This document shows positions 4,042-52,104 of a stretch of DNA of 52,104 bases, piece by piece. The translations under genes and the position numbers were made by a program. The stretch is from an uncultured Clostridia bacterium (lineage in GTDB: Bacteria; Bacillota; Clostridia; Christensenellales; Aristaeellaceae), in NCBI GenBank assembly GCA_947600345.1, contig CANQGC010000001.1:1-52104 (forward strand). Direction: 5' to 3'. The notes beneath the pieces are model-generated. The model had not been told where the DNA came from and made no database searches. It worked only from the letters and a program-made list of their open reading frames with translations. Numbering within the stretch: the stretch's first letter is position 1; each line of letters begins with the position of its first letter.

Positions 4042-4071
4042 TTTCCACAGCGATCGAATTTACGCACACAG

Positions 4072-4100
4072 GGGGCGGGAGGGCTTCTCCCTCCCGCCCC
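4072..4100 (+). terminator. intercistronic GC hairpin (partial terminator or stabiliser) between TRAP SBP and permease genes
   Basis: 12-bp stem GGGGCGGGAGGG/CCCTCCCGCCCC with a 5-nt loop, 30 nt after the SBP stop. Only a weak T tail follows. Confidence 0.45.
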
Positions 4101-4140
4101 TTCAACTCCTTTCCCGACTTGTAGAATGAGGTGACGGCTC

Positions 4141-14297: not shown

Positions 14298-15541
14298 ACG
14301 AGAACCGCACTTCCTTCTGGAAGAAGGACGGCACGCGCTCGGTGCTCGCCTCGCTGATTTCGATACTGATCGGCCTGGCGGTCGGCAGCCTCATCATCCT
14401 TCTGCTGGGCATCTTCAACACCAGCATGAAGGACGCCTGGGAGGGCATCCGCCTGGTGTTCCTGGGCCTGTTCAGCACGGGCCGCAACACCGCCGGCGCG
14501 CTGACCTTCGGCTTCAACGGCATCAACTTCGGAAACATGCTCTTCCGCGCCACGCCGGTGATCCTGACGGGTCTGTCCGTGGCCGTGGCGAACAAGACGG
14601 GCCTGTTCAACATCGGCGCGCCGGGCCAGTACCTGATGGGCACGGCGGCCACGCTGTTCCTCGCGCTGAGCATCCCCTCCACGAAGATGGCCATCCCGGG
14701 CGTGAATCCCAGCTCGATCCCGCCGATCGCGGTTTGGTTCATCGCGCTGCTGGGCGGCATGCTGGCGGGCGCGGCCTGGGGCGCGATCCCCGGCCTGCTC
14801 AAGGCGCTGCTCAACATCAACGAGGTCATCGCCTGCATCATGACGAACTGGATCTCGGCGAACCTCGTGACCTGGTTCTTCGACGTGAGCAACCTGAAGA
14901 ACATCGTAGAGAACACGAAGTCCGGCTACATCTACAAGACCACGATCAACGGCGTCGCCACGCCGAAGATGGGCCTGGACAAGATCTTCCCCGGCTCCCA
15001 GGTCAACGGCGGCATCATCATCGCGATCCTGCTGGCGGTGGCGGTCTACATCCTGCTGACGCGCACCACCCTGGGCTACGAGCTCAAGGCCTGCGGCGCG
15101 AACCGCTTCGCCGCCCGCTACGCCGGCATCAAGGACAAGCGCAACATCGTGCTGTCGATGGCCATCGCGGGCGCGCTGGCCGGCGCCGGTGGCGCGCTGT
15201 ACTACCTGGCGGGCAACACGGAGTTCTTCTGGTCCACCTACCAGTCGCTGCCGGCGGAGGGCTTCAACGGCATCCCGGTGGCGCTGCTGGCGATCAACAA
15301 TCCCATCGGCGTGATCTTCGCGGGCGCATTCATGTCCATGCTGAACATATCGGGCCTGCAGATCACGAACCTGACCTCGTTCAACGAGTACATCACCGAC
15401 GTCATCATCGCGGTCATCGTCTATCTGTCGGCCTTCTCGCTGGTCATCAAGCTGATGCTCAACGGCCGCAAGAAGAAGAGGGCCGCCGCGTCCGTCGTGG
15501 ACGACGCCAAGGGTGCGGACAAAGGGGGTAGCAAGGCATGA
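14294..15541 (+). CDS. ABC transporter permease (BMP-type, first permease)
   Basis: 415 aa polytopic protein. ATGA overlap with the ATPase gene. Confidence 0.85.
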   Translation: MNENRTSFWKKDGTRSVLASLISILIGLAVGSLIILLLGIFNTSMKDAWEGIRLVFLGLFSTGRNTAGALTFGFNGINFGNMLFRATPVILTGLSVAVANKTGLFNIGAPGQYLMGTAATLFLALSIPSTKMAIPGVNPSSIPPIAVWFIALLGGMLAGAAWGAIPGLLKALLNINEVIACIMTNWISANLVTWFFDVSNLKNIVENTKSGYIYKTTINGVATPKMGLDKIFPGSQVNGGIIIAILLAVAVYILLTRTTLGYELKACGANRFAARYAGIKDKRNIVLSMAIAGALAGAGGALYYLAGNTEFFWSTYQSLPAEGFNGIPVALLAINNPIGVIFAGAFMSMLNISGLQITNLTSFNEYITDVIIAVIVYLSAFSLVIKLMLNGRKKKRAAASVVDDAKGADKGGSKA

Positions 15542-16560
15542 GTTTCCTGATTCGCCAGACACTGATTTACGCGGTTCCCCTGATGATCGTCGCCCTGGCG
15601 GGCGTGTTCGCCGAGCGCAGCGGCATCATCAACCTGGCGCTGGAGGGCCTCATGATCTTCGGCGCGTTCATTGGCGTGCTGTTCGTACGCATCATGCAGC
15701 AGGCGGGCGTGTTTGAAACGTCCATGGGCGTGCTGCCGCTGCAGGGCTTCATGCTGCTTTCGATGCTGGTTTCAGCGGTACTGGGCGCGGTGTTCTCACT
15801 GCTGTTGGCCTTCGCCGCCATCAACCTGCGCGCGGACCAGACCATCGGCGGCACGGCGCTGAACCTGATGGCCCCGGCGCTGGTGCTGTTCTTCATCCGC
15901 ATCATCGCCAACCAGAACACGCTACAGATGGCCTCGGGCGACGCGGCGAGCTGGTTCATGATCAAGAAGAGTATGTTCGGCTACGGCCGCGGCCAGGAGA
16001 TGGGCTTCCTGGGCTCCACCTTCGTGGACAAGGTGTACCTCTCGACGTACATCTGCATACTGATCTACATCGTGCTCTCGATCATCCTATACAAGACGAA
16101 GTTCGGCCTGCGGCTGCGCTCCTGCGGAGAGAACCCCCAGGCCTCGGCCTCGCTGGGCATCAACGTCTACAAGATGCGCTACTGCGGCGTCATCATCTCC
16201 GGCGCGCTGGCGGGCATGGGCGGCTTCGTCTACGCCATGACCACAGCGAACTGCACCTCCAACGGCGACGTCGCCGGCTTCGGCTTCCTGGCGTTGGCGG
16301 TCATGATCTTCGGAAACTGGAAGCCGCTGAACATCTCCGGCGCGGCGCTGCTGTTCGGACTGTTCAAGTGCATCGCCGCCTCCTACTCGAGCCTGGACAT
16401 CAACGGCGACGGCGTGTACCTGCTGGCCCAACTGAACATCAATCCGAACTTCTACCGCCTGCTCCCCTATCTGATTACGCTGCTGGTGCTGGCCTTCACA
16501 TCGAAGAGCTCCCGCGCCCCCAAGGCCGAGGGCATCCCCTACGATCAGTCCACCAGGTAG
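15538..16560 (+). CDS. ABC transporter permease (BMP-type, second permease)
   Basis: 340 aa polytopic protein. ATGA overlap with the upstream permease. Confidence 0.85.
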   Translation: MSFLIRQTLIYAVPLMIVALAGVFAERSGIINLALEGLMIFGAFIGVLFVRIMQQAGVFETSMGVLPLQGFMLLSMLVSAVLGAVFSLLLAFAAINLRADQTIGGTALNLMAPALVLFFIRIIANQNTLQMASGDAASWFMIKKSMFGYGRGQEMGFLGSTFVDKVYLSTYICILIYIVLSIILYKTKFGLRLRSCGENPQASASLGINVYKMRYCGVIISGALAGMGGFVYAMTTANCTSNGDVAGFGFLALAVMIFGNWKPLNISGAALLFGLFKCIAASYSSLDINGDGVYLLAQLNINPNFYRLLPYLITLLVLAFTSKSSRAPKAEGIPYDQSTR

Positions 16561-16570
16561 GAACTGGAGT

Positions 16571-16702
16571 CATCTGCTGCCGCGCTCATGCGGCGGACTC
16601 CTGCCCCGCAGATCATGGGGCAGGAGTTCTGCGTTTCTTCCTTATATTATTCCTTTGTTCGAGGCACGGAATCCGCCCCCATAGATTCGAGGGGCGGATT
16701 CC
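16571..16702 (+). repeat. extragenic multi-hairpin element, copy 1 (module A, no 3' closing strand)
   Basis: CATCTGCTGCCGCG at 16571. Hairpin ACTCCTGCCCC-GCAGATCAT-GGGGCAGGAGT (16597-16627) and hairpin GGAATCCGCCCC-CATAGATTCGA-GGGGCGGATTCC (16668-16702). Confidence 0.8.
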
Positions 16703-16745
16703 TTCGTTTCGTTATTGCCTTTGCCTGTCCCTTCTGCGCGCCCGG

Positions 16746-20521: not shown

Positions 20522-20687
20522 TAAGGCAACACCGCACAGAACGGCGGCGCGTCAGGCGATGCCTTTTCCGCCATCTGCTGCTTGCAAATTTCTCGACTTA
20601 CCTCCAGTAAGCCTTCGAAATTTGCAATTGCATCTGACGAAAAATTCATTCACCTGCCGACCACCTTATCTGTGCGGTGTTGCCTTA
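20522..20687. repeat. 166-bp fold-back element bounded by a perfect 19-bp inverted repeat
   Basis: TAAGGCAACACCGCACAGA (20522-20540) pairs with TCTGTGCGGTGTTGCCTTA (20669-20687). Nested inside are an 11-bp stem (20582-20592/20617-20627), a 5-bp stem (20597-20601/20607-20611) and a bulged 9-bp stem (20550-20561/20631-20639). Confidence 0.7.
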
Positions 20688-31675: not shown

Positions 31676-33296
<1,621 letters not shown>

Positions 33297-33298
<2 letters not shown>

Positions 33299-33660
33299 GG
33301 CCGGCGGGGCCGGCAGCCATCTGCTGCCGCGCTGAGGCGACGGAAACCTGCCCCGTAGATTATGGGGCAGGTTTCCTGCGTCTCGTTTCTGATGAAAGCT
33401 TTGTTCGAAGCACGAAATCCAGCCCGTAGATCATGGGCTGGATTTCTTTGTTTTGGCGAACGGGGCATGGGTTCGCAGGCGGCAGCAGAAGGGAGAATCC
33501 AAGGAACCTCAGGTTCCTTGGTAGGAATTCTCAAGGGACAAAGTCCCTTGAGCAGGTCTGGGCAGCGCCTAGCATAACCCCAGCGGCCCGCGCCAAATCT
33601 ATGCCCGGCAATTCGTACAATGGCGTCATCGTTCCATACCGCGGGCCGCCACTAACTCGC
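33297..33660 (+). repeat. extragenic multi-hairpin element, copy 2 (modules A+B)
   Basis: Small hairpin GGCCGGC-GGG-GCCGGC. Closing stem 33320-33330/33479-33489 around hairpins at 33342-33376 and 33414-33446. Then palindromes CCAAGGAACC-TCA-GGTTCCTTGG, CTCAAGGGAC-AAA-GTCCCTTGAG and GGCCCGCG...CGCGGGCC. Confidence 0.85.
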
Positions 33661-39820: not shown

Positions 39821-42571
39821 ATGGCAAGGCAAAAGCAACAGCCCGTCTACGAAGATCGATCGGAATCCAGCGGCGCGCCACTGAAGATATTGCTGGCGGT
39901 GGTGTGCTTCGGGCTGGCGGTGCTGCTGATCTATCTGGCCACGGCGCAGCCCCAGGAGGCCACCGCGATGGCCGCCATCCGCGATGTGATGCGCGGCATC
40001 GGCGGCAGCGTGAACCCGGTGCTCTCGCTGGTGCTGGTGTGGATCGGCGTGCTGCTGGTGTTCTCCGCGCGGGGGCGCCGCGTTCGCATGCTGAACGTCA
40101 TCGTCAACGCGCTGCTGTTTCTGTGCCTGTTCACGGCGGTGCAGCTGTTCTCCGCCGGGGAGATATTCGAGCAGCGAATGACCATCACCAGCTTCGCAAA
40201 CTTTGTCAGCCAGTCCTATCAGTACGGCGCGGGCGGCGGCGTGATCGGAGCGCTGCTGGCCTACCCGCTGTTCCGCTTCGCCGGGGGCGCCTGGGGCGGA
40301 TTGATCGTGGTGCTGATCGTGGTGCTGCTGTGCCTCCTGATCACCGGCCGCGCCCAGCGCGCCTACCGCTGGGCCGCGGAGCGCGCCGACGCGGGCGCCC
40401 AGCGCCGGGAGCAGCGGCAGCAGGAGCGCAGAGTAGAACAAATGTTCGATCCTGAGTACGGCCGCCGGATGCAGGCCCCGCAGATGCGCAGGCCGCCCCG
40501 GCAGCCCCAGCCCCAGCGCCGGGTGCGCCCGGAGCGGGACTACATGGTGATCGACGATCCCAAGCCCGTGCGGCGCAATCCGCGCCCGGCGGCAGCCTCC
40601 ACCAGGACGCTCTACGACGAGGCGCCGGAGGCCGGGCGCGCTCCGAGGCCCCAGTCCGGCGGCATGGAGATTCCCAAATCCCTGCGCAAGATACGCGAGA
40701 ACCGCGCCGCCGAGCAGCGCGAGCTCCTGGAGCGGGAGAAGCGCGAAGCGGAGGCAGAGGCGCAGGCGCGGCGGCAGAGCGCCGCGGAGCGCGAGCCCGC
40801 CAGCGACGTGCCCGACTTCTTCACCGTGAAGGACGACATGAAGGATGCGCCCGCCCCCGGCGAAGCGCCCGCCGAGCCGTCCGCCGGCCGCAGGGAATCC
40901 TCCGCCGCGCAGAAGCCGAAGAAGCGCACCGTGGTGGAGGGCGTGCGCGCCCTGGCCGTGGACGACATCGTGCCCGAGACCGAGCCGGAGGACATCGAGG
41001 ACGACGAGCCGCCCTTCGACGTGCCGCACACCGCGGGCAAGCCCACCGCGAAGTCGGCGGAGAAGTCCGCAACCGAGGCGGCCTTCCGCCCCGCCGCGGA
41101 GGCGGAGGACGGCGAGGAGATCTACAACTACCCGCCCATCGACCTGCTGGCCCAGGGCGAGCAGACGCGCGCCACGCAGCTTCAGAAGGACGACGACCAC
41201 CGCAAGGCGGACAAGCTGATCGAGACGCTGGAGAGCTTCGGCATCGAGACCCGGCTGATCGGCATCGCCCACGGCCCCGCCGTCACTCGCTTCGAGCTGC
41301 AGCCCGCGCCGGGCGTCAAGGTCAGCCGCATCACCTCGCTGTCGGACGACATCGCGCTGGGCCTGGCGGCCATGTCCGTGCGCATCGAGGCGCCCATCCC
41401 CGGCAAGGCCGCCGTGGGCGTGGAGATCCCCAACGACAAGGTGGAGATGGTGCGCCTGCGCGACGTGCTGGAGTGCCCCGAGGCCAAGCGCCACCCGTCG
41501 AAGATCGCCGTGGGCCTGGGCAAGGACAACTCCGGCCGCTACATCGTGGCCGACATCGCCAAGATGCCCCACGTGCTCATCGCCGGTCAGACCGGCTCCG
41601 GTAAGTCCGTGTGCATCAACTCCATCATCACGTCGATCCTCTACCGCGCCGCGCCCGACGAGGTGCGCATGATACTGATCGACCCGAAGGTCGTGGAGCT
41701 TTCGATTTACAACGACATTCCGCACCTGATCGCGCCGGTGGTCACCGACCCGAAGAAGGCCAGCTCCGCGCTGGATTGGGCCGTGGCCGAGATGAGCATG
41801 CGCTACAAGCGCTTCGCCGAGCGCGACGTGCGCGACATCAAGGGCTACAATAAGAAGCTGGAGCCGGACGAGAAGCCCATGCCCCAGATCGTGATCGTCA
41901 TCGACGAGCTGGCCGATTTAATGATGGTCGCCCCCGGCGAGGTCGAGGACAGCATCTGCCGCCTGGCCCAGCTTGCCCGCGCGGCGGGCATGCACCTGGT
42001 CATCGCCACCCAGCGGCCGTCGGTGAACGTCATCACCGGCATCATCAAGGCCAACATCCCCACCCGCATCGCCTTCTCCGTGGCCTCCCAGGTGGATAGC
42101 CGCACGATGATCGACCACGGCGGCGCGGAGAAGCTGCTGGGCAACGGCGACATGCTCTTCGTGCCCTCCGGCATCAACAAGCCGCTGCGCGTGCAGGGCG
42201 CCTGGGTCTCCGACGAGGAGGTTCACGCCATCGTGTCCTACATCAAGGCCCGCAGCGAAACCACCTACGACGAGGACGTGGTGGAGAAGATCGAGAACTC
42301 CGTGCGCTCCGACGCCGAGCGCGAGGAGGTGGCCGATGAGTACGACCCGCGCCTGCCCGAGGCCGTGGAGATCGTTATCGAGGCCGGACAGGCCTCCACC
42401 TCCATGCTCCAGCGCCGCATGCGCGTGGGCTACGCCCGCGCAGGCCGCCTCATCGACGAGATGGAGAAGCGCGGCGTGATCGGCGAGGCCGACGGCTCCA
42501 AGCCCCGCAACGTGCTGATGAGCCGCGAGGAATTCAACAATACCTTCGGCGAGGCGCCCGAAGAGCCATGA
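39821..42571 (+). CDS. ftsK: DNA translocase FtsK/SpoIIIE
   Basis: N-terminal TM helices, a low-complexity P/Q/E/A linker, motor domain with Walker A GQTGSGKS, and a C-terminal gamma winged helix (LQRRMRVGYARAGRLIDEME). Confidence 0.95.
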   Translation: MARQKQQPVYEDRSESSGAPLKILLAVVCFGLAVLLIYLATAQPQEATAMAAIRDVMRGIGGSVNPVLSLVLVWIGVLLVFSARGRRVRMLNVIVNALLFLCLFTAVQLFSAGEIFEQRMTITSFANFVSQSYQYGAGGGVIGALLAYPLFRFAGGAWGGLIVVLIVVLLCLLITGRAQRAYRWAAERADAGAQRREQRQQERRVEQMFDPEYGRRMQAPQMRRPPRQPQPQRRVRPERDYMVIDDPKPVRRNPRPAAASTRTLYDEAPEAGRAPRPQSGGMEIPKSLRKIRENRAAEQRELLEREKREAEAEAQARRQSAAEREPASDVPDFFTVKDDMKDAPAPGEAPAEPSAGRRESSAAQKPKKRTVVEGVRALAVDDIVPETEPEDIEDDEPPFDVPHTAGKPTAKSAEKSATEAAFRPAAEAEDGEEIYNYPPIDLLAQGEQTRATQLQKDDDHRKADKLIETLESFGIETRLIGIAHGPAVTRFELQPAPGVKVSRITSLSDDIALGLAAMSVRIEAPIPGKAAVGVEIPNDKVEMVRLRDVLECPEAKRHPSKIAVGLGKDNSGRYIVADIAKMPHVLIAGQTGSGKSVCINSIITSILYRAAPDEVRMILIDPKVVELSIYNDIPHLIAPVVTDPKKASSALDWAVAEMSMRYKRFAERDVRDIKGYNKKLEPDEKPMPQIVIVIDELADLMMVAPGEVEDSICRLAQLARAAGMHLVIATQRPSVNVITGIIKANIPTRIAFSVASQVDSRTMIDHGGAEKLLGNGDMLFVPSGINKPLRVQGAWVSDEEVHAIVSYIKARSETTYDEDVVEKIENSVRSDAEREEVADEYDPRLPEAVEIVIEAGQASTSMLQRRMRVGYARAGRLIDEMEKRGVIGEADGSKPRNVLMSREEFNNTFGEAPEEP

Positions 42572-43260
42572 TCCGCCGCTTCCCACTGCTGCGCAGCGCG
42601 AATGATCTGGCCGCGCTGGTGAACGAGGTCGGCTTCGTGCCCTTCTTCATCAACGAGATCCCCGGCTTCTCCATAGAAGAGAGCACGCCCGGCGAGCTCT
42701 GGTTCGAGGAGGGCGCCGACGGCCCCTGGGAGTGGAAGGATCGCACCATCCAAGGCGCGGGCTGCGCCTATGGCAAGTTCTACCGGGGCCGCGCCATGTA
42801 CATAAGCCGCGAATGGTTTCCGGACTTCTGTAACTACCGCCGCGACGGCTACGACTTCGAGGGCTTCTATAACGACGGCCACGCCGGCAAGCGGGATAAG
42901 CGCCTGCTGGACGCGCTGGCGGAGACCGGCCCGGCGCAGGCGCGGGATCTGAAGCGCCAGGCTAAGTTCGATAAGGACGAGCGCCGGGGCTTCGATGGAT
43001 TGCTGACAAGGCTGCAGATGCAGACGTTTCTGCTGATCGACGGCATTGAGTACCGCACGGACCGCTTCGGCCAGCGCTACGGCTGGGGCGTGTGCCGCTA
43101 CGCGACGCCGGAGCAAAGGTTCGGAGAAGGCTTCCTGGCGGAAGCCTATGAAAGGGAGCCGAAGGAATCCGGACAAAGGATACTGGAGCAGCTTCATAAG
43201 CTCCTGCCCGACGCCAGCGAAAGCGCGCTCGCTGCAGTCCTGGGCAAAGGCCCATCGTAA
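42568..43260 (+). CDS. hypothetical protein, possibly an AlkZ/YcaQ-related winged-helix protein
   Basis: 230 aa with coding-like composition. ATGA overlap with the ftsK stop. The family guess has low certainty. Confidence 0.6.
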   Translation: MIRRFPLLRSANDLAALVNEVGFVPFFINEIPGFSIEESTPGELWFEEGADGPWEWKDRTIQGAGCAYGKFYRGRAMYISREWFPDFCNYRRDGYDFEGFYNDGHAGKRDKRLLDALAETGPAQARDLKRQAKFDKDERRGFDGLLTRLQMQTFLLIDGIEYRTDRFGQRYGWGVCRYATPEQRFGEGFLAEAYEREPKESGQRILEQLHKLLPDASESALAAVLGKGPS

Positions 43261-43263
43261 CCC

Positions 43264-43500
43264 CAGAAGGGAGAATCCAAGGAACCTCAGGTTCCTTGGC
43301 AGGAATTCTTAAGGGACAGCGTCCCTTAAGCAGGTCTGGGCGGAGCCCAGCGTCACCCCAGCGGCCCGCGGTATCCATCCAAAGCCCGACAAAGTGCCCC
43401 ACCGCCCCACCGCCCCCATACCGCGGGCCGCCGCGGCGCCTTTCAAATTGGAAAGCCAAGGCTTTCCAATTTGAAACAGCCGCCACTAACTCTCAAGCGA
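43264..43500 (+). repeat. extragenic multi-hairpin element, copy 3 (module B only)
   Basis: Starts CAGAAGGGAGAATCC. Palindromes CCAAGGAACC-TCA-GGTTCCTTGG, CTTAAGGGAC-AGC-GTCCCTTAAG, TCTGGGC-GGA-GCCCAG, GCGGCCCGCGGTAT...ATACCGCGGGCCGC and TTCAAATTGGAAAGCC-AAG-GCTTTCCAATTTGAA. Confidence 0.85.
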
Positions 43501-43557
43501 ACCCCGCCCGTCCCCTACCCCCATCCCGCCGCCAAATACGAGAGAGGAAGCAATCCC

Positions 43558-44889
43558 ATGAGCAAAACCAATGCGCAAAAGCCCACCGCAGGCGTCGTCT
43601 CCCTGGGCTGCGCGAAGAACCTGGTGGACTCGGAAAACCTGCTGGGCATGCTCCGCGACCGGGGCTACGAGATCGTCTCCGATCCCTCCGAAGCGGAGAT
43701 CATATTCGTCAACACCTGCGGCTTCATCGAGTCCGCCAAGCAGGAATCCATCGACACCATCCTGGAGATGGCCGAGTACAAGAAGACCGGCAAATTGAAG
43801 CAGCTCTTCGTCACCGGCTGCCTGGCCCAGCGCTACGCAAGCGAGCTCGCGCAGGAGCTGCCCGAGGTGGACGGCTTCATGGGCGTGGCCGACTACGCCC
43901 GGCTCTACGACATGCTGGACGAGGCCAATTCCGGCGAACGCCCGGTCTACATGCGCGACGGCGAGCGCTTCTTCCAGTGCGGCCGCGTGCTCAGCGCCAA
44001 CGCCTTCTCCGCCTACGTCAAGATCTCCGACGGCTGCGATAACCGCTGTACCTACTGCGCGATCCCGCTGATCCGCGGCAGCTACGCCTCGCGCCCCTTC
44101 GACGACATCGTGGACGAGTGCAGAAGCCTCGCCGCACAGGGCGTGACGGAGCTCACGCTGATCGCCCAGGACACCAGCCGCTACGGCTGCGACCTCGGCG
44201 ACGGCCACTACCAGCTGCCGGAGCTCCTGCGCGCGGTCAGCGAGATCGAGGGCGTGCACTGGGTGCGCGTGCTCTACTGCTACCCGGACAGCACCGAGGA
44301 CCGGCTGCTGGACGAGATCGCCAATAATCCCAAGGTCGCGCCCTACCTGGACCTGCCGCTGCAGCACATCAACGACGACCTGCTCCGACGGATGAACCGC
44401 CGGGGTGACGCGGCGTGGATCAGGAGCCGCCTGGCGGAGTGCCGGAAGCGGGGCATCATCGTGCGCACCACGATGATCGTGGGCTTCCCGGGCGAGACGG
44501 ACGCGCAGTTCGCGGAGCTGCTGGACTTCGTGAAGGAGGCTCGCTTCGACCGGCTGGGCGCGTTCACCTACTCGCCGGAGGAGGGCACGCCCGCTGAGCG
44601 CATGCCGGACCAGATCGACGAGGAAGTGAAGGCCGAGCGGCTGGACCAGCTGATGATGCTGCAGCAGGCGATCTCCGCCGAGCTCATGGCGGAGCGCATC
44701 GGCACGGAGTGCGAGGTGCTGGTGGAGGGGCAGGACGAGGACGGCTGGTACGGCCGGTCCATCTACGAGGCCCCGGAGTCCGACGGTGTGATCCATTTGA
44801 ATGCGGACCGGGAGCTGGTTCCCGGGGAATACGTCCGCGCGCGGGTGGTCGCCGCGGACGCCTACGACCTGACGGCGGAGGTGCTGTGA
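43558..44889 (+). CDS. rimO: ribosomal protein S12 methylthiotransferase RimO
   Basis: Start MSKTNAQKPTAGVVSLGCAKNLVDSE after GAGAGGAAG. Radical SAM motif CDNRCTYC. C-terminal TRAM domain. Confidence 0.9.
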   Translation: MSKTNAQKPTAGVVSLGCAKNLVDSENLLGMLRDRGYEIVSDPSEAEIIFVNTCGFIESAKQESIDTILEMAEYKKTGKLKQLFVTGCLAQRYASELAQELPEVDGFMGVADYARLYDMLDEANSGERPVYMRDGERFFQCGRVLSANAFSAYVKISDGCDNRCTYCAIPLIRGSYASRPFDDIVDECRSLAAQGVTELTLIAQDTSRYGCDLGDGHYQLPELLRAVSEIEGVHWVRVLYCYPDSTEDRLLDEIANNPKVAPYLDLPLQHINDDLLRRMNRRGDAAWIRSRLAECRKRGIIVRTTMIVGFPGETDAQFAELLDFVKEARFDRLGAFTYSPEEGTPAERMPDQIDEEVKAERLDQLMMLQQAISAELMAERIGTECEVLVEGQDEDGWYGRSIYEAPESDGVIHLNADRELVPGEYVRARVVAADAYDLTAEVL

Positions 44890-44890
44890 G

Positions 44891-45445
44891 ATGAATCTTC
44901 CGAATAAACTAACGATGCTTCGCGTGGTGATGATTCCACTGTTCGTGATTCTGGCGCTGGTGCAGCGGCAGTGGGCCCAGTACCTGGCGCTGCTGGTGTA
45001 CATCGCGGCCTGCGTCACGGATCTGTTCGATGGAAAGATCGCCCGGGCGCGGCACCTGGTCACCGACTTCGGCAAGTTTGCCGATCCCATCGCGGACAAG
45101 CTGCTGGTGATGTCGGCGCTCATTGTGCTGGTGGATTCCCAGAGGATGCCCGCCTGGGTGTGCATCGTGATGCTGGCGCGGGAGTTCATCATCTCCGGCC
45201 TGCGCATGGTGGCGGCGGGCAAGGGCACCGTGATCGCCGCGGCGATGCTGGGCAAGCTCAAGACGGTGTTCCAGATGAGCGCCACCATCGCGCTGATGCT
45301 GCTGGTGCCGGTACAGGGGCGGCCGCTGCTGGGCCACTTCGGCGTGGTGCTGGCAAACATACTGATGTACGTCGCCGCCGTGCTGACCATCGTCAGCGGC
45401 GTGGAGTACGTCATGAAGAACATCGACTGCATATCGGACATGTAG
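44891..45445 (+). CDS. pgsA: CDP-diacylglycerol--glycerol-3-phosphate 3-phosphatidyltransferase
   Basis: MNLPNKLTMLRV... with a CDP-alcohol phosphatidyltransferase motif (D.FDG..AR....T.FG.F.DP.ADK). Confidence 0.9.
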   Translation: MNLPNKLTMLRVVMIPLFVILALVQRQWAQYLALLVYIAACVTDLFDGKIARARHLVTDFGKFADPIADKLLVMSALIVLVDSQRMPAWVCIVMLAREFIISGLRMVAAGKGTVIAAAMLGKLKTVFQMSATIALMLLVPVQGRPLLGHFGVVLANILMYVAAVLTIVSGVEYVMKNIDCISDM

Positions 45446-45596
45446 CAGGCAGGGCCTGCGCCCGTCTGCTGCCGCGTTGGAGCGACGGACTTTTGCCCCG
45501 TAGATTATGGGGCAAAAGCCCTGCGTCTGTGCGTCGGTTGGTTCCTTTGTTCGGAGCACGAAATCCAGCCCGTGGATTATGGGCTGGATTTCTTCG
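45446..45596 (+). repeat. extragenic multi-hairpin element, copy 4 (module A, no 3' closing strand)
   Basis: Hairpin GCAGGC-AGG-GCCTGC, then CGTCTGCTGCCGCG, then hairpins at 45489-45519 (loop GTAGATTAT) and 45560-45592 (loop GTGGATTAT). Confidence 0.8.
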
Positions 45597-45615
45597 CTGG
45601 AATTGGGGTTGGGCG

Positions 45616-45643
45616 TTGACTTGTAGGGAAATTTTGTTATAAT
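45616..45643 (+). promoter_or_regulatory. sigma-A type promoter with extended -10
   Basis: TTGACT, 16-nt spacer ending TGt, TATAAT (45638-45643). Confidence 0.65.
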
Positions 45644-45680
45644 TAGAGAAGAAGTTTTGGATGAAGGGGAGGCCTTTTCA

Positions 45681-47036
45681 TTGCCGGATTTTGATCGGAT
45701 GTCGCTGAACGAGCTCGTTCGGCCCGAGGGCTGGGACTGCGACTGCGGGAAGCATCACGTATGTGAATTGAAGTATCTGAAGATCGCGCGCGGGGCGCTG
45801 GCCTCCGTGCCGGAGATGGTGCGCGCGCTCGGGCGGACGAAGCCCTTCGTCGTCTGCGATTCCAACACCTACGCCGTGGCGGGGGAGAGGGTCTGCCAGA
45901 TCCTGGATGCGGCGGGCATTCCGCACGTGTGCTACGTCATTCCCGGCGAGAAGCTCTCGCCCGCCGAGTGGGAGGTCGGCAGCGCCGTGATGCAGTTCGA
46001 TCCCTCCTGCGACCTGCTGCTGGGCGTGGGCTCCGGCGTCATCAACGACACCTGCAAGGTGCTCAGCCACGCCATCGGCATCCCTTCCGCCATCGTCGGC
46101 ACCGCGCCCTCGATGGACGGCTACGCCTCGAACTCCTCCTCGATGGAGGTCAACCACGTGAAGGTCTCGCTCTACAACCACTGCCCCATCGGCGTGCTTC
46201 TGGACGTGGACGTGCTGGCCCAGGCGCCGATGCGCATGCTCTGGGCGGGCTTCGGCGACATGGTGGCCAAGTACGTGGCCATCTGCGAGTGGCGCATCTC
46301 CCACCTGGTCACCGGCGAGTACTACTGCGAGAACGTGGCGCAGATGATGCGCGCGGCGCTCAAGCGCGTGGTCGACGCCTCGGACGGCATCGCCAGCCGC
46401 GACCCGGACGCCATACAGTCCATCGCCGAGGGCCTGCTGATCGCGGGCATCGCCATGGCCTACGCCGAGATCTCCCGCCCGGCCAGTGGGCTTGAGCATT
46501 ACTTCTCCCACATGTGGGAGATGATGGCGCTGGAGCGCGGCGTCCCCTACGACCTGCACGGCATACAGGTGGGCGTGGGCACGGTGCTGACGCTCCGGCT
46601 CTACCGCTGGATCCGGACGCTGACGCCCGACCGCGCGCGGATGGAGGCCCACGCCGCCGCCTTCGATCCGATCGCCTGGGAGGCCCAGGTGCGGCGCATC
46701 TTCGGCAAAACCGCCGACGAGATCGTGTCCATCGAGCACAAGACCCACAAGAACGACCCCGACCGCCTGCAGAGGCGCATCGATGCCATCTGCGCGCACT
46801 GGGACGAGATCACCGCCATCATCGACGCCGAGCTTCCGGACTTCGACGGACTCTACGCGAAGATGAAGGCCACCGGAATGCCCACGGAGCCCCGGGACAT
46901 CGACATCCCCGATTCGGACGTGATCGACGCCTACCTGGGCGCGCGGGACATTCGCGACAAGTACCTCTCCTGCTCAATGCTCTGGGACATGGGCCTCGAG
47001 CGGGAAGCCGCGGAATTCCTGCGCGGCGCACTATAA
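45681..47036 (+). CDS. iron-dependent ADH-superfamily enzyme, probable sn-glycerol-1-phosphate dehydrogenase (AraM/EgsA-like)
   Basis: Frame open from 45657. TTG 45681 lies 8 nt after AAGGGGAGG; alternatives are TTG 45657 and ATG 45696. Has GVGSGVINDTCK and the DHQS-like/Fe-ADH fold pattern. Assignment is from recalled family resemblance. Confidence 0.6.
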   Translation: MPDFDRMSLNELVRPEGWDCDCGKHHVCELKYLKIARGALASVPEMVRALGRTKPFVVCDSNTYAVAGERVCQILDAAGIPHVCYVIPGEKLSPAEWEVGSAVMQFDPSCDLLLGVGSGVINDTCKVLSHAIGIPSAIVGTAPSMDGYASNSSSMEVNHVKVSLYNHCPIGVLLDVDVLAQAPMRMLWAGFGDMVAKYVAICEWRISHLVTGEYYCENVAQMMRAALKRVVDASDGIASRDPDAIQSIAEGLLIAGIAMAYAEISRPASGLEHYFSHMWEMMALERGVPYDLHGIQVGVGTVLTLRLYRWIRTLTPDRARMEAHAAAFDPIAWEAQVRRIFGKTADEIVSIEHKTHKNDPDRLQRRIDAICAHWDEITAIIDAELPDFDGLYAKMKATGMPTEPRDIDIPDSDVIDAYLGARDIRDKYLSCSMLWDMGLEREAAEFLRGAL

Positions 47037-47112: not shown

Positions 47113-47958
47113 ATGAAAAAGGCAGTTCTCCGGTTTGTCATTGCGCTTCTGACGATCTCCGTCGCTCTCACCGTCTTGACCGGAATCGCACTTGCGGATG
47201 CGATCTACGCCTCCGGCGGCGATTCCTACATCCGCAGCCAGCCGAGCCTGTCCGGCGCGCAGGTGGGTCTCTTCCCGGAAGGCGCCGTGGCCAGCTACCT
47301 GGGCAACAGCTCGGTGGACAGCCGAGGCGTGACCTGGTACTACATCTCCTACAACGGCAAGACCGGTTGGGTGTCCTCCCGCTACACTTCCTTCTCCGGA
47401 AGCTACAGCGCGCCGAGCTACAGCGTGCCGAGCTACGTCGTTCCCGGCTACAGCGTCCCCAGCTACAGCAGCGGCACGATCTACGCCTCCGGCGGCGATT
47501 CCTACATCCGCAGTCAGCCGAGCCTGTCCGGCACGCAGCTCGGAACCTTCCCGGAGGGCGCGGCGGCCAGCTACCTGGGCAACAGCTCGGTGGACAGCCG
47601 GGGCGTGACCTGGTACTACATCTCCTACAACGGCAAGACGGGCTGGGTGTCCTCCCGCTACACCTCCTTCACCGGAGGCTACAGCTACAGCGTGCCGAGC
47701 TACGTCGTGCCCGGCTATGTCGTGCCCGGCTACAGCGTGCCCTCCTACAGCGGCAGCGTCGTGTATGGCTCCGGCGGCGACTCCTACATCCGCAGCCAGC
47801 CGAGCCTGTCCGGCACGCAGATCGGAACCCTTCCGGAGGGCGCGGCGGCCAGCTACCTGGGCAACAGCTCGGTGGACAGCCGAGGCGTGACCTGGTACTA
47901 CATCTCCTACAACGGCAAGACGGGCTGGGTGTCCTCTCGCTACACCTACCTGTCCTGA
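47113..47958 (+). CDS. secreted protein with three SH3b (bacterial SH3) repeats and Tyr/Ser/Pro/Val-rich linkers
   Basis: Signal peptide MKKAVLRFVIALLTISVALTVLTGIALA. Three units of GGDSYIRSQPSLSG...GNSSVDSRGVTWYYISYNGKTGWVSSRYT. Confidence 0.85.
   Translation: MKKAVLRFVIALLTISVALTVLTGIALADAIYASGGDSYIRSQPSLSGAQVGLFPEGAVASYLGNSSVDSRGVTWYYISYNGKTGWVSSRYTSFSGSYSAPSYSVPSYVVPGYSVPSYSSGTIYASGGDSYIRSQPSLSGTQLGTFPEGAAASYLGNSSVDSRGVTWYYISYNGKTGWVSSRYTSFTGGYSYSVPSYVVPGYVVPGYSVPSYSGSVVYGSGGDSYIRSQPSLSGTQIGTLPEGAAASYLGNSSVDSRGVTWYYISYNGKTGWVSSRYTYLS
47203..47952 (+). repeat. in-frame tandem DNA repeat (3 units, period about 276-282 bp) inside the SH3b gene
   Basis: Units start near 47203, 47479 and 47761, with long near-identical runs (e.g. 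TACATCCGCAGCCAGCCGAGCCTGTCCGGC). Confidence 0.85.
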
Positions 47959-47972
47959 TCGAAAATTTCAAA

Positions 47973-47999
47973 GGCGGTCGCGAAAGCGGCCGTCTTTTT
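47973..47999 (+). terminator. rho-independent terminator
   Basis: GGCGGTCGC-GAAA-GCGGCCGTC (two G-U pairs) followed by TTTTT. Confidence 0.65.
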
Positions 48000-48093
48000 G
48001 AACAAAAGTGCTCAACCGGTGCGCTATACTGATATCAGAAAGTGAATCGAGCGGACGCGCCGCCGATTCTACAAAAACAAGGAGGGGTTCATC

Positions 48094-48843
48094 ATGAAGA
48101 AACTGTTCACCAAGAAGCTCGCGCTCGCAATGCTGCTCTGCCTGCTGCTGACCGCCATCTCCGCCACGGCCCTGGCCGACGGCATCACCGCCGTGGAGGA
48201 GCACTGCTACATCCGCACCGCGCCGGGACTGAACGGGGAGATCATCTACACGGTGCCCGTCGGCGCGACGGCGACCTACCTGGGCGATACGTCGGTGGAC
48301 AATCGCGGCGTGACCTGGTACAAGGCCACCTACGACGGCGTCACCGGCTGGATGTCCGGCCTGCAGATCAGCCTGAGCTCCGACTACAGCTCCTATGACG
48401 ATTACGGTTACGACCTGATCGCCGTGGAGGAGCACTGCTACATCCGCACCGCGCCGGGGCTGAACGGGGAGATCATCTACACGGTGCCGGTGGGTGCGGC
48501 GGCGGCCTACCTGGGCGATACGTCGGAGGACAACCGCGGCGTGACCTGGTACAAGGCCGACTACAACGGCATCCGGGGCTGGATGTCCAGCCTGCAGGTC
48601 AAGCTGAGCTACGGCGGCTCCGCTGGCTCCGCCGGCGGTGTCATCACGGCCGTGGAGGAGCACTGCTACATCCGCACCGCGCCGGGGTTGAACGGCGAGA
48701 TCATCTACACGGTGCCGGTGGGCGGCAAGGCGACCTACCTGTACGATACGTCGGTGGACAATCGTGGCGTGACCTGGTACAAGGCCACCTACGACGGCGT
48801 CACCGGCTGGATGTCCGGCCTCCAAATCCGCACAAACTTTTGA
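48094..48843 (+). CDS. secreted protein with three SH3b repeats
   Basis: Signal peptide MKKLFTKKLALAMLLCLLLTAISATALA. Three units of AVEEHCYIRTAPGLNGEIIYTVPVG...DNRGVTWYKA.Y.G..GWMS.LQ. Confidence 0.85.
   Translation: MKKLFTKKLALAMLLCLLLTAISATALADGITAVEEHCYIRTAPGLNGEIIYTVPVGATATYLGDTSVDNRGVTWYKATYDGVTGWMSGLQISLSSDYSSYDDYGYDLIAVEEHCYIRTAPGLNGEIIYTVPVGAAAAYLGDTSEDNRGVTWYKADYNGIRGWMSSLQVKLSYGGSAGSAGGVITAVEEHCYIRTAPGLNGEIIYTVPVGGKATYLYDTSVDNRGVTWYKATYDGVTGWMSGLQIRTNF
48181..48831 (+). repeat. in-frame tandem DNA repeat (3 units, period about 225-234 bp) inside the SH3b gene
   Basis: Units start near 48181, 48415 and 48640, sharing GCCGTGGAGGAGCACTGCTACATCCGCACCGCGCCGGG. Confidence 0.85.
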
Positions 48844-49330
48844 CGGCGGGGCCGTCGGCCATCTGCTGCCGCGTTTAAGCGACGGACTTGGGGCCCGTAG
48901 ATTATGGGCCCCAAGTCCTGCGGTGCGTTTCTGAAGGAGCGATTGTACGAAGCACGACCTCTGGCCCCATAGATCCGAGGGCCAGAGGTCTTCGTTTGGG
49001 GAACGGGAGCTTGGCCTAAACGCGGCAGCAGAAGGGAGAATCCAAGGAACCTCAGGTTCCTTGGCAGGAATTCTTAAGGGACAGAGTCCCTTAAGCAGGT
49101 CTGGACGGAGTCCAGAACGGGTCCGGGCGGAGCCCAGCGTTACTCCTGCGGCCCGCGGTATTCAAATCATTGCTTGGGAATGCGAACCAAGGCTCCATCG
49201 CCTCCATACCGCGGGCCGCGCGAGGCGAGTTTTTGGAATGGGAAGCCAGAAGGCTTCCCATTCCAAAAGAGCAAACGGACGCTTCGCTTTGCCCGCCCTA
49301 ACGCTGCGACAGAACCAAACCTCGGCATTT
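48842..49330 (+). repeat. extragenic multi-hairpin element, copy 5 (full length, modules A+B)
   Basis: GACGGC-GGG-GCCGTC. 16-bp closing stem 48862-48877/49017-49032 around hairpins at 48884-48918 and 48956-48990. Palindromes at 49042-49064, 49073-49095 and 49100-49116, a 14-bp long-range stem 49148-49161/49206-49219, and a 17-bp hairpin at 49231-49268. Confidence 0.9.
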
Positions 49331-49493
49331 GCCAGAACAAGAAGGCTTTCCCCGATATTCTGAGTGCCATCCAGATTCCCGGAGGGCGCTCTTTTGTTTG
49401 CTCAGAAAACTCAAAAGTAGAGTATGGATTCAAAAAATAGACATAATAGCATGGTATTTAGCCATAAGTCGGCACAATATTAGCATTCTCCCA

Positions 49494-49522
49494 TTGCTAG
49501 TTAGCATCCCAAAAGCTACAAT
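49494..49522 (+). promoter_or_regulatory. candidate promoter for the small SH3b gene
   Basis: TTGCTA, 17-nt spacer, TACAAT, in an AT-rich tract. Confidence 0.45.
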
Positions 49523-49608
49523 ATACCCGTACCAAGGAAGCGCCAATCAAGCGGCGCTCCCCCAAGAATCCAGAATCCATACTTCCAATAATGAAAGGGG
49601 AATTTACC

Positions 49609-49914
49609 ATGAAGAACACTCTGAAGATTATGATCGCGATCATCCTGAGCCTGACTCTGATCCTTGGAACCGCCGCGCTGGCGTGCGACGAGGGCGGATA
49701 CTTCTACGGAGCCGTGGTCGCCACGGGCGGCGACAGCTACATTCGAGACGAACCGAACCTGAACGGAAGCATCCTCGGCAGCCTGGGCGAAGGTAGGACG
49801 GCGATCTTCTACGGATACAGCTCGTTTGACAGCCGCGGGGTAGAGTGGTACCTGATCGACACCGGCAGCACATTCGGCTGGGTGTCCTCCCGGTACACGA
49901 CGCTGTACTACTAA
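49609..49914 (+). CDS. small secreted protein with a single SH3b repeat
   Basis: AAAGGGGAA RBS then MKNTLKIMIAIILSLTLILGTAALA. GGDSYIRDEPNLNGS...SRGVEWYLI...GWVSSRYT. Confidence 0.75.
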   Translation: MKNTLKIMIAIILSLTLILGTAALACDEGGYFYGAVVATGGDSYIRDEPNLNGSILGSLGEGRTAIFYGYSSFDSRGVEWYLIDTGSTFGWVSSRYTTLYY

Positions 49915-49940
49915 TGATAGCAAGAGGGGGAAAGGAAGCG

Positions 49941-49968
49941 GAGGCCCGGAGCGAAAGCTCCGGGCCTC
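49941..49968 (+). terminator. terminator-like hairpin after the small SH3b gene
   Basis: GAGGCCCGGAGC-GAAA-GCTCCGGGCCTC, a 12-bp stem. The T tail is weak. Confidence 0.5.
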
Positions 49969-49992
49969 TATGTGTCGAGGAAGGCTTCGTGG

Positions 49993-50509
49993 TTTGGAGA
50001 ATGCCGGAGGTTTGGTTCAGGCGTGGCGTTCGGGCGTGGTAAAGCGAAGCGTCCGTTTGCTCTTTTGGAATGGGAAGCCCTGGGCTTCCCATTCCAAAAC
50101 TCGCTTCGCGCGGCCCGCGGTATGGAGGCGATGGGGCGTTGGTTCGCATTGCCGGGCAACGACTTGAATACCGCGGGCCGCCGGGGTGACGCCGGGCTCC
50201 GCCCGGACCCGCTGGGCTCCGCCCAGACCCGTTCTGGGCTCTGCCCAGACCTGCTTAAGGGACTCTGTCCCTTAAGAATTCCTGCCAAGGAACCTGAGGT
50301 TCCTTGGATTCTCCCTTCTGCTGCCGCGCTGTGAGCCAAACCCCCGTTCCCCAAACGAAGACCTCTGGCCCTCGGATCTATGGGGCCAGAGGTCGTGCCT
50401 CGTACTTCGCTCCCTACAGAAACGCACCGCAGGACTTTGGCCCCATAATCTACGGGGCCAAAGTCCGTCGCCCATACGCGGCAGCAGATGGCCGCCCGCA
50501 CTGCGGGCT
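49993..50509 (-). repeat. extragenic multi-hairpin element, copy 6 (full length, inverted orientation)
   Basis: The reverse complement aligns with copy 5 over about 480-500 nt, through all modules, with an extra TCTGGGC-type hairpin. The module A end (CATCTGCTGCCGCG on the minus strand, 50477-50490) faces the recA promoter. Confidence 0.9.
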
Positions 50510-50523
50510 GGTTCGCGAAAAAA

Positions 50524-50537
50524 TAAACGTGTGTTCG
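50524..50537. promoter_or_regulatory. possible LexA (Cheo-type SOS) box
   Basis: TAAACGTGTGTTCG versus CGAACRNRYGTTCG. The right half is perfect and the left half reads AAAC. It lies about 25 nt upstream of the recA -10. Confidence 0.35.
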
Positions 50538-50558
50538 ATATACTTCCGGGGAGGGATG

Positions 50559-50567
50559 TGTTATAAT
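50559..50567 (+). promoter_or_regulatory. extended -10 element of the recA promoter
   Basis: TGtTATAAT, 36 nt upstream of the recA ATG. No good -35. Confidence 0.5.
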
Positions 50568-50602
50568 AAGGAAAGGAAATTAACCATGGAGGTAGCAGAT
50601 AG

Positions 50603-51718
50603 ATGGCAGTGGATAAGAAGGCGGAAAAGAAGCCCGCGGAGAAAAAGTTTGGCGATGACCGCAAGAAGGCGCTGGAGATTGCGCTGGGTAAGATTGAGAA
50701 GGACTTCGGCAAGGGCTCGGTGATGAAGCTGGGCGCGGCGGCGGATCGCATGCAGGTGGAGGTCATCCCCACGGGCTCGCTGCAGCTGGACTTCGCGCTG
50801 GGCGTGGGCGGACTGCCGAAAGGGCGCATCATCGAGATCTACGGCCCGGAATCCTCCGGTAAGACCACCGTGGCGCTGCACTGCATCGCGGAGGCGCAGA
50901 AGCAGGGCGGCACGGCGGCGTTCATCGACGCGGAGCACGCGCTGGACCCGGTCTACGCGGAGCACCTGGGCGTGGACATCGACGAGCTCTACGTCGCCCA
51001 GCCGGACAACGGCGAGCAGGCGCTGGACATCTGCGAGGCGCTGGTGCGCTCGGGCGCGATCGACATCGTGGTCATCGACTCGGTGGCGGCGCTGGTGCCC
51101 AAGGCGGAGATCGAGGGCGACATGGGCGACAGCCACGTGGGCCTGCAGGCCAGATTGATGTCCCAGGCCCTGCGCAAGCTGGCGGGCGTGATCGCGAAGA
51201 CGAACGCCATTGCGATCTTCATCAACCAGCTGCGCGAGAAGGTGGGCGTGGTGTACGGCAATCCGGAGACGACGACGGGCGGCAAGGCTTTGAAGTTCTA
51301 CGCCTCGGTGCGGCTGGACATCCGCAAGGGCGAGCCGATCAAGGACGGCTCGGAGGTCATCGGCAACCGCACGAAGATCAAGGTGGTGAAGAACAAGGTT
51401 GCGCCGCCGTTCCGCTCCTGTGTGGTGGACATACTCTACGGCGAGGGCATCTCGGCCTCGGGCGAGCTACTGGATCTGGCCGTGGAGCGGGAGCTGATCA
51501 AGAAGTCGGGCGCGTACTACAGCTACAATGGCGAGCGGATCGGCCAGGGCCGCGACAATGCGCGCAAGTTCCTGATGGATCATCCGGACGTCTACGAGGC
51601 GCTGGAGAAGGCCATCCGCGAGTCCTTTGCCGCCACTCCCGCCGCGGAGCCCGCCATGACCATCGAGCCCATCGACGATCCCGACGACGACCTCGACGAC
51701 TTCGACCTCGACTCCTAG
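50603..51718 (+). CDS. recA: recombinase RecA
   Basis: Walker [10 protein letters not shown], with FIDAEHALD and [20 protein letters not shown]. Acidic C-terminal tail. Confidence 0.97.
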
Positions 51719-52104
51719 GCGGCAGTGCCGCCTTCCATCTGCTGCCGCGACTGGGCGACGGACTTTGGCCCCGTAGATTATGGGGCCAAAGTCCTGCGGT
51801 GCGTTTCTAAAGGAGCGATTGTGCAGAGCGACGAAATCCTGCCCCATAGATCCGAGGGCAGGATTTCTGCGTTTTGGCAATGGGACGCAGTGGGACAGCG
51901 CGGTAGCAGAGGGGAGAATCCAAGGAACCTCAGGTTCCTTGGCAGGTCTGGGCAGCGCCCAGCGTGGCCCCTGAGGCTGCGGTTTGTAGGCGGCTGCGGG
52001 TTGAGGAGAAAAGGCAACGCCCAGCAGGCGGCAGCAGAAGGGAGAATCCAAGGAACCTCAGGTTCCTTGGCAGGTCTGGGCAGCGCCCAGCGTAGCCCCT
52101 GAGG
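51719..52104 (+). repeat. extragenic multi-hairpin element, copy 7 (module A plus two tandem short module-B units; truncated by the window end)
   Basis: GGCGGCA-G-TGCCGCC. Closing stem 51738-51749/51899-51910 (one G-U pair) around hairpins at 51760-51794 and 51833-51867. GGAGAATCCAAGGAACCTCAGGTTCCTTGGCAGGTCTGGGCAGCGCCCAGCGT occurs twice (from 51912 and from 52041). Confidence 0.85.

Follow-up and report, generated by a model that had tools for sequence, protein, structure and literature searches.

We describe a family of modular, hairpin-rich repeats in a 52,104-nt stretch of DNA from an uncultured Clostridia bacterium (GenBank assembly GCA_947600345.1, contig CANQGC010000001.1, positions 1 to 52,104; hereafter the window). 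The elements probably represent an undescribed family of interspersed repeats carried by uncultured gut Clostridia (CAG-74, Ca. Faecivicinus and relatives), of the same kind as the BOX, SPRITE and BIME repeats and with roles resembling those of 3' untranslated regions (3' UTRs) and terminators. What is new is the repeat family itself, as interspersed repeats of the terminator-like or BOX-like kind are already known in other bacteria, and the family behaves like an interspersed repeat rather than like a new class of RNA gene. Most copies have their 5' end on a same-strand stop codon and would be transcribed as a 3' UTR or an intercistronic spacer. The first of two modules, module A (hairpins H0, H1 and H2), would most likely serve the upstream gene as a tandem Rho-independent terminator and as a barrier to 3' exonucleases. 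The second, module B, would be a stack of stable hairpins tolerated within operons, which probably changes mRNA stability or processing or is simply carried along, and the family would have spread by insertion and by local duplication and recombination of modules.

An earlier note, made from the sequence alone, had claimed seven copies of a modular multi-hairpin extragenic element with no credible open reading frame (ORF). Both the description and the count hold: blastn with the copy that the note had flagged (48842-49330) as query and repeat finding recovered all seven copies, which sum to ~2.3 kb, or 4.5% of the window. The coordinates given earlier also stand overall, except those of copy 3, which now runs from 43261 to about 43539, ahead of a rimO-like gene that starts at 43558. 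The copies are as follows.

16571-16709, plus strand: copy 1, module A only, with the 5' strand of the closing stem P1 (CATCTGCTGCCGCG), H1 and H2, without H0 and without module B
33299-33656, plus strand: copy 2, modules A and B, with B1, B2, one mini-hairpin, B4 and the CTAAC end, without the long B5
43261-43539 (3' end approximate), plus strand: copy 3, module B only
45446-45597, plus strand: copy 4, module A only, with H0, H1 and H2
48842-49330, plus strand: copy 5, the flagged copy, a full element with modules A and B
49993-50509, minus strand: copy 6, a full element with three mini-hairpins
51719-52104, plus strand: copy 7, module A followed by two tandem units of B1 plus mini-hairpin, cut by the window end

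On the plus strand the blastn alignments extend over 16571-16709, 33302-33649, 43264-43480, 45448-45614, 48842-49330 (the query itself) and 51720-51946, and the inverted full copy aligns at 50000-50504 on the minus strand with 86% identity to the flagged copy over 508 nt. Behind 51720-51946, blastn also finds a second module-B start (52028-52074), where the window end cuts it, and copy 2 is followed by a degenerate second B fragment that reaches ~33745. Repeat finding in the window shows that copies 3, 5 and 6 share segments that are 96-98% identical. A profile of the hairpin unit found exactly 12 units in the window, two for each module-A copy and zero elsewhere. The architecture of the whole family is a mosaic of A-only and B-only copies, copies truncated at the 5' or 3' end, and tandem short units. 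The tandem unit GCGGCAGCAG-AAGGGAG-B1-mini-hairpin has a period of 128 nt in the window (51900-52104) and of 105 nt in a related locus, L009 (2673-2844), which suggests slippage or recombination between modules.

Module A is ~170 nt long and consists of H0, the motif CCATCTGCTGCCGCG, H1, a T-rich linker, H2 and a T-rich tail. Its parts in the flagged copy are listed here.

48842-48856, plus strand: H0, a GC hairpin (GACGGC GGG GCCGTC) that overlaps the GA of a TGA stop codon
48863-48873, plus strand: 5' strand of P1, CTGCTGCCGCG, which pairs with 49021-49031 and so encloses H1 and H2
48884-48918, plus strand: H1, with a 13-bp stem, the conserved loop GTAGATTAT and a T-rich 3' flank
48954-48995, plus strand: H2, of the same hairpin type as H1, with the loop ATAGATCCGA and a T-rich tail

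The overlap of H0 with the stop codon refines what had earlier been called a variable GC hairpin. In an alignment of 12 module-A copies, six from the window and six from relatives, H1 and H2 stand head-to-tail ~73 nt apart in every copy (12/12), with stems of 12-13 bp and loops of 9-11 nt, and the H2 loop reads ATAGATYNGA across copies. The mean T content of the 12 nt 3' of H1 and of H2 is 5.9, against an A content of 2.0-2.6 in the 12 nt 5' of them, which confines the U-rich tail to the sense strand, the orientation of the upstream gene. Module A thus resembles a terminator module, a role that had been raised earlier only as a matter for testing.

All six plus-strand copies begin 0-10 nt past a stop codon, one more than the five that had been counted before, and H0 starts 0-1 nt past the stop codon, or overlaps it, in 9 of the 12 aligned module-A copies. 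The genes and signals next to the copies are the following.

15538-16560: ABC-type permease gene (Pfam BPD_transp_2), upstream of copy 1, with its stop 10 nt before the copy
33296-33298: stop codon of groEL (Pfam Cpn60_TCP1); copy 2 begins at the very next base
39821-42571: FtsK gene
42568-43260: AlkZ-related gene, with copy 3 directly behind its stop
43558-44889: rimO-like gene, with its ATG at 43558 and its ribosome-binding site (RBS) directly behind copy 3
44891-45445: pgsA; copy 4 begins at the base after its stop
45616-45643: strong promoter-like site (11/12 consensus positions) for the Fe-ADH gene, 18 nt behind copy 4
45657-47036: Fe-ADH gene
47113-47958 and 48094-48843: two SH3 protein genes, with copy 5 behind the second
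49591-49914: gene for a small secreted SH3 protein of 107 aa, between copies 5 and 6
49941-49968: hairpin scored as a minus-strand terminator-like signal, just 3' of the plus-strand small SH3 gene and treated as its terminator
50603-51718: recA; copy 7 begins at the base after its stop

The gene upstream of copy 3, which had been labelled an ftsK-coupled ORF, encodes an AlkZ-related protein. Copy 1 lies in a convergent intergenic region, and copy 6 lies between the small-SH3 terminator and the recA SOS box and promoter, antisense to both of its neighbours. As the earlier note had stated, we saw no transposase adjoining any window copy, in a Pfam check that covered the flanking genes only.

The best evidence on the role of module A comes from a comparison of the surroundings of RecA proteins that are 81-94% identical to the RecA of the window. 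Module A is found directly behind the recA stop codon in the window and in the loci L071, L072, L073 and L075; the RecA proteins of these five lineages are 90-92% identical, and the module-A copies have 62-78% nucleotide identity with compensated stems. In L071, L072 and L075, H2 is immediately followed by the next gene's promoter, TGTGGTAGAAT, and in L076 the place that module A holds in those three loci is taken by a canonical terminator (AAAAGCCCCG...CGGGGCTTTTTTT), with the same promoter behind it, which argues for module A as the recA terminator. Judged from its anatomy and from the slot that it occupies, module A most likely terminates the upstream gene. The sequence behind recA is ordinary in L070, L074, L077 and L078, and in L068 recA is followed by one H-type hairpin and its T-rich tail. 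Upstream of recA, L073 carries an antisense module A in the same place as copy 6 of the window. In the recA promoter region (50510-50602) there is an SOS box of the Cheo type, AAACGTGTGTTCG (in L073, CGAACATATGTTT), together with an extended -10 element, TGTGTTATAAT, and in both the window and L073 the antisense repeat copy ends directly against this region. Copies 5 and 6 form a block (48842-50509) in which two inverted full copies flank the 107-aa SH3 gene, a gene that L071, L073 and L075 lack between their SH3 or Fe-ADH gene and recA, and the whole may have been acquired or duplicated in one piece.

Module B is ~250-300 nt long and consists of a start, (GCGCGGCAGCAG)AAGGGAGAAT, then B1, an optional B2, mini-hairpins, B4, B5, a conserved end and a tail. 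Its first 11 nt pair with the motif in module A to form the closing stem P1. Its parts in the flagged copy are these.

49021-49031, plus strand: 3' strand of P1, CGCGGCAGCAG, the 5' end of module B, followed by AAGGGAGAAT
49042-49064, plus strand: B1 hairpin, CCAAGGAACC TCA GGTTCCTTGG
49073-49095, plus strand: B2 hairpin, CTTAAGGGAC AGA GTCCCTTAAG, an optional module that resembles B1
49099-49137, plus strand: two mini-hairpins, GTCTGGAC GGA GTCCAGA and GTCCGGGC GGA GCCCAG
49148-49219, plus strand: B4, a 14-bp long-range stem, GCGGCCCGCGGTAT / ATACCGCGGGCCGC, around ~45 nt of C-rich, G-poor sequence
49231-49268, plus strand: B5, a 17-bp hairpin with TTTT at its 5' side and AAAA at its 3' side
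49269-49330, plus strand: C/A-rich tail, at a place where most other copies have the conserved end GCCGCACTAAC

The mini-hairpins have the general form GTCTGGGC-RRM-GCCCAG and number one to three in module B, and L068 carries a compensated variant of B1, CCAAAGGGTC AAT GACCCTTTGG. Across copies, the B4 stem is 11-14 bp long around an interior of about 50 nt, and B5 varies from 12 to 22 bp, with a sequence that is different in almost all copies and arms that pair every time. Module B has a conserved end in most copies (GCCGCACTAAC, the ...CTAAC end, then the C/A-rich tail), and the 5' boundaries of copies are ragged, beginning with GGGAG, AGAAGGGAG or GCGCGGCAGCAG. On the sense strand, the B4 interiors of 18 copies contain 316 C against 151 G, a count that is descriptive only since the interiors are homologous. 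For the same reason we rejected the idea that the C-rich, G-poor interior is a Rho loading site, as its composition provides no independent evidence.

The junction between the AlkZ-related and rimO genes bears on how module B spreads. The earlier note had proposed a comparison of presence and absence at orthologous loci, and such a pair is found here: the junction is empty in L068, where it is 17 nt long (TGA-GAGAGAGGGTGCTCTAC-ATG), and filled in the window, where it is 297 nt long. The extra ~280-nt module B sits exactly between the stop codon and the RBS, so we regard it as an insertion in an apparent operon. If expression of rimO and pgsA still comes from upstream, transcripts probably read through it. 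Behind pgsA, an element is present both in the window (A only) and in L068 (a degenerate A plus B). The filled and empty sites, together with the near-identical copies, show that the family has spread.

No target-site duplication is visible at the filled and empty junctions, which are a single pair of diverged sequences, and this matters for the idea that the family is a classical MITE (miniature inverted-repeat transposable element), a non-autonomous DNA transposon with terminal inverted repeats that is mobilized in trans by an insertion sequence (IS) transposase encoded elsewhere. Besides the filled and empty sites, dispersed segments that are near-identical and the frequent position of copies at contig ends in metagenome-assembled genomes (MAGs), as multi-copy repeats predict, are in line with a MITE, as is the 11-bp inverted repeat CTGCTGCCGCG / CGCGGCAGCAG around module A. 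However, this repeat brackets module A in the A+B copies only, and there is none for A-only copies, B-only copies or whole elements. The 5' boundaries are ragged and no transposase was found adjoining the window copies, and we consider this explanation highly improbable.

The family is not confined to the window. An exact scan for the B1 core with one genome per species found at least 16 loci, and among the matches listed are a rabbit-gut Clostridia MAG (many contigs), Ca. Faecivicinus sp., UMGS1603 and two further MAGs. Ca. Faecivicinus corresponds to the GTDB genus UMGS1603 in the Christensenellales family CAG-74 (PMC8035907). Coding DNA of the window is 77-89% identical to that of two of the MAGs with the B1 core, which places the window in that clade. 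Altogether, the family occurs beyond the window in at least four independent MAGs and several ENA assemblies, often at contig ends, and we discarded an assembly artefact as an explanation, given its presence in many independent assemblies. Copy density is 0-2 per 11-21 kb in the relatives compared to 7 in 52 kb here, a contrast that indicates lineage-specific expansion. By contrast, 51 loci from a metagenome scan with the module-A pattern TCTGCTGCCGCG-N5-GCGRCGGA were all chance matches, and blastn shows no element in any of them.

The positions of about 30 copies relative to genes were determined with crude ORF calling that was partly checked by eye. Roughly two thirds of them begin no more than 50 nt past a same-strand stop codon, most of those within 25 nt, and in all eight convergent intergenic regions (8/8) the 5' end of the element is closer to its own stop codon than the 3' end is to the other gene. 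Between tandem genes, sense copies outnumber antisense ones by ~7:3. Antisense copies and copies next to divergent gene starts together make up approximately a quarter to a third of the total. In L005, L008 and L011, module B is followed by true intrinsic terminators. In the related MAG L006 (2476-5532), two module-B copies in inverted orientation enclose an IS110-family transposase gene (3775-4826, apparently frameshifted) and a GNAT acetyltransferase gene that is AT-rich (3077-3511). Insertion into REP-like palindromes is known for IS110-family elements, and the repeat may serve as an IS target.

The claim that the family is undescribed also stood up to searching. Rfam 15 gave no matches at the gathering score over the whole window, and in E-value mode for 48700-50700 (copies 5 and 6) the best scores were at most 26 bits against cut-offs of 42-82, which is noise; the models without a match include OLE, GOLLD, ROOL, HEARO, raiA and the IS605-orfB motifs. 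Searches of plasmids and phages with blastn and a scan of viral contigs for the B1 core gave no match, and we found no description of the family in the literature searched. Several known systems were considered and set aside: CRISPR arrays by the irregular spacing, integron attC sites by the housekeeping flanking genes and the lack of an integrase, group II introns, retrons, T-boxes and riboswitches by the absence of an Rfam signal, and TnpB/IscB guide-RNA scaffolds by the absence of both an Rfam signal and a nuclease gene.

The hairpins are maintained in both modules, with strong covariation. Over the 12 module-A copies, 96.3% of cells in H0, H1 and H2 are paired and 20 of 30 pairs have changed on both sides, including five of the six pairs of H0 (helix 1). 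None of 500 shuffles matches the observed pairing, and shifting the partners by 1-3 columns leaves no more than 58% of cells paired. Over 17 copies of the 3' domain of module B, 93.2% of cells are paired, 12 of 15 pairs of B5 have changed on both sides, and B4 is conserved in sequence. Full copy 5 has a predicted fold of -268.5 kcal/mol, compared to -191 +/- 6.6 for shuffles (z = -11.8).

Such a stable, covarying fold might indicate a bona fide structured noncoding RNA (ncRNA) domain, either borne by a 3' UTR or processed, with a cis or trans function of its own as a protein sponge or docking platform, like multi-copy small RNA families. In favour of this, P1 closes a three-way junction around H1 and H2, single-stranded motifs (the loops, AAGGGAGAAT and GCCGCACTAAC) are conserved, and module A has been retained behind recA in five lineages. 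Single G·U substitutions are found in P1, where one position is G·T in copy 7, and in the stem GCGAGGCG / CGCTTCGC when copy 5 is compared with copy 6. On the other hand, G·U is not in excess over A·C overall, Rfam has no match, and modules that occur alone, truncated or duplicated show that no fixed architecture is needed. The 3' strand of P1 is missing from every A-only copy, including the conserved ones behind recA. Antisense copies are present and close relatives lack the element at the same loci. We find an ncRNA of this type rather improbable, and the likening of the elements to large ornate ncRNAs in the earlier note is not borne out: truncated, mosaic and antisense copies, lineage-specific expansion with uneven density among close relatives, and equal G·U and A·C mismatches all speak for an interspersed repeat instead.

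The mismatches deserve a closer look. In stems there are 5 A·C and 5 G·U mismatches in H0-H2, and about 9 A·C and 7 G·U in B4 and B5. Another count, of interior stem positions, gives 12 G·T and 5 A·C mismatches next to 803 Watson-Crick pairs. Equal frequencies of A·C and G·U argue against selection on RNA only, and the pairing constraint is thus not assignable to RNA alone, although such small numbers cannot settle the question. Template switching is a known mutational process that corrects quasi-palindromes at the DNA level, and it could likewise keep the arms matched. A comparison of sense and antisense folding energies of whole copies, tried as a test of RNA versus DNA, was dropped, as its result is biased by the G/U-rich antisense strand that the C-rich module-B linkers produce.

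The hairpins might instead act as DNA, as sites for a REP/RAYT-like Y1 or HUH nuclease that mobilizes them or for a recombinase such as one of the IS110 family, with the loops GTAGATTAT and ATAGATTAGA as the contact or nick site. The equal mismatches are what would be expected if both strands matter or if template switching corrects the arms, the stems are nearly perfect palindromes, the loops of H1 and H2 are conserved with variable stems, and the IS110-family transposase and GNAT genes of L006 lie between inverted module-B copies. The loop motif also begins with GTAG or GTGG, a tag known from REPs (PMC3733652). However, the GTAG, GTGG or ATAG sits within the H1 and H2 loops and not unpaired at a stem end, H1 and H2 always form a direct tandem pair while REPs are mostly inverted dimers, and neither tagged REP type was reported from Firmicutes in a survey (PMC3733652). 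The C-rich, G-poor linkers and the U-rich tails also distinguish the two strands and agree with the sense of the upstream gene. Additionally, tblastn found no Y1 transposase in 300 kb made up of the window and related loci, with the limits that the IS200 TnpA query was approximate and that the genomes are incomplete. We think it unlikely that the hairpins act as DNA sites.

Several observations also count against a 3'-UTR or terminator-like repeat, the explanation that we favour. Both termination and co-transcription of the copies are inferred from the sequence. A terminator scan of the window does not call H1 or H2, which we attribute to loops of 9-11 nt that are beyond the limit of the scan and to the G and C that break the U-tracts. 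Antisense copies and copies at divergent gene starts, about a quarter to a third of the family, make no sense as terminators of neighbouring genes, and the parity of A·C and G·U mismatches described above is a further difficulty. No whole-element terminal inverted repeats, target-site duplication or transposase were found that would account for mobility. Finally, a plain terminator does not explain conserved loops on variable stems, which suggest recognition by a protein.

This last point, with a hairpin placed on the stop codon and long retention behind recA, leaves room for a dedicated protein-hairpin system. The two-hairpin module with its conserved AT-rich loops, together with module B, would in that case be the recognition platform of a dedicated protein, either an RNA-binding regulator or a hairpin-specific nuclease or recombinase. 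We offer this as a speculative proposal with a small chance of being right.

The earlier comparison with BOX, BIME and Correia-type repeats was apt, and the family, which we consider a terminator-like interspersed repeat, would be of one kind with BOX and SPRITE of Streptococcus pneumoniae and with the enterobacterial BIMEs. BOX elements (boxA-boxB(n)-boxC) are modular, with an internal module present from zero to several times, much as the element here has one to three mini-hairpins, an optional B2 and tandem units of B1 plus mini-hairpin. Complementary sequences close the BOX structure as P1 closes module A, a resemblance in architecture only. Both are intergenic with extensive predicted secondary structure, and BOX elements are often co-transcribed with their neighbours, with many that abut the upstream stop codon or supply it; in 36 cases the BOX element itself encodes that stop codon (PMC3049150). 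The element here differs in its host class (Christensenellales rather than mitis-group streptococci), in its larger size (up to about 500 nt) and at least seven hairpin types, and in its terminator-like two-hairpin module with conserved loops. BOX elements have also been tied to an IS through similar terminal repeats, and no such tie was seen here.

The closest analogue of module A is SPRITE, a terminator-like repeat enriched at gene 3' ends (PMC3049150) with a strong hairpin and a U-rich tract, thought to have been co-opted as a terminator. Module A has the same properties, namely a GC-rich hairpin with a sense-strand U-rich tract near 3' ends of genes in the same orientation. It differs in that a stop-codon hairpin and two tandem 13-bp hairpins stand in place of the single 18-bp duplex of SPRITE, its U-tracts are interrupted, and its loops rather than its stems are conserved.

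REPs and BIMEs resemble our family as high-copy extragenic palindromes in mosaics, mostly downstream of genes or between convergent genes, with proposed roles in termination and mRNA stabilization. REPs are defined as short palindromes in which one stem end carries an unpaired GTAG or CGTC tag; their units mostly form inverted dimers (head-to-head or tail-to-tail, with head-to-tail rare), and the RAYT (Y1) transposase gene is flanked by repeats (PMC3733652). Here there is no unpaired stem-end tag, the dimers are direct, the stems are longer, the loops of 9-11 nt are conserved, and no RAYT was seen in the 300 kb searched, and the family is thus not REP as defined. ERIC and Correia elements are likewise intergenic and can be co-transcribed, their effects on mRNA depend on orientation, and their insertions are polymorphic, but they have clear terminal inverted repeats, in Correia with a TA duplication, and neither feature is seen for the whole element here.

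The window contains other repeats that are outside the extragenic family. Direct repeats of 204-276 nt (families D1 and D2, 47125-48841) are coding and correspond to the tandem SH3_3 domains of the two SH3 proteins. An unrelated repeat at 20522-20687, between a terminator and the RBS of the next gene, forms a long hairpin of 166 nt whose terminal inverted repeats, TAAGGCAACACCGCACAGA / TCTGTGCGGTGTTGCCTTA, are perfect over 19 bp, and has a fold z of -7.3. Copies of it are found in L074 (9660-9820, 86% identity, upstream of recA) and in L016 (1-114), and it looks like a MITE. A 56-nt inverted repeat (5784-5839 / 6523-6578, 79% complementary) lies within two oppositely oriented long ORFs and may reflect paralogous membrane-protein genes.

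The family has practical consequences for the study of a widespread uncultured gut lineage. The element breaks MAG assemblies, with many copies at contig ends, and since spurious ORFs cross it, annotating it would improve gene calling and would also help operon and terminator prediction and assembly. The recA locus is a natural experiment, with a canonical terminator in some lineages and a repeat module in others, and this contrast makes it possible to test directly whether repeat-borne hairpins are co-opted as terminators or mRNA stabilizers. Conserved loops on variable stems are a concrete lead to a binding protein. Should the elements prove to be the platform of a dedicated protein, Clostridia would have a new REP/RAYT-like or 3'-UTR regulatory system, and insertion exactly at stop codons would be part of its mechanism rather than a by-product of selection.

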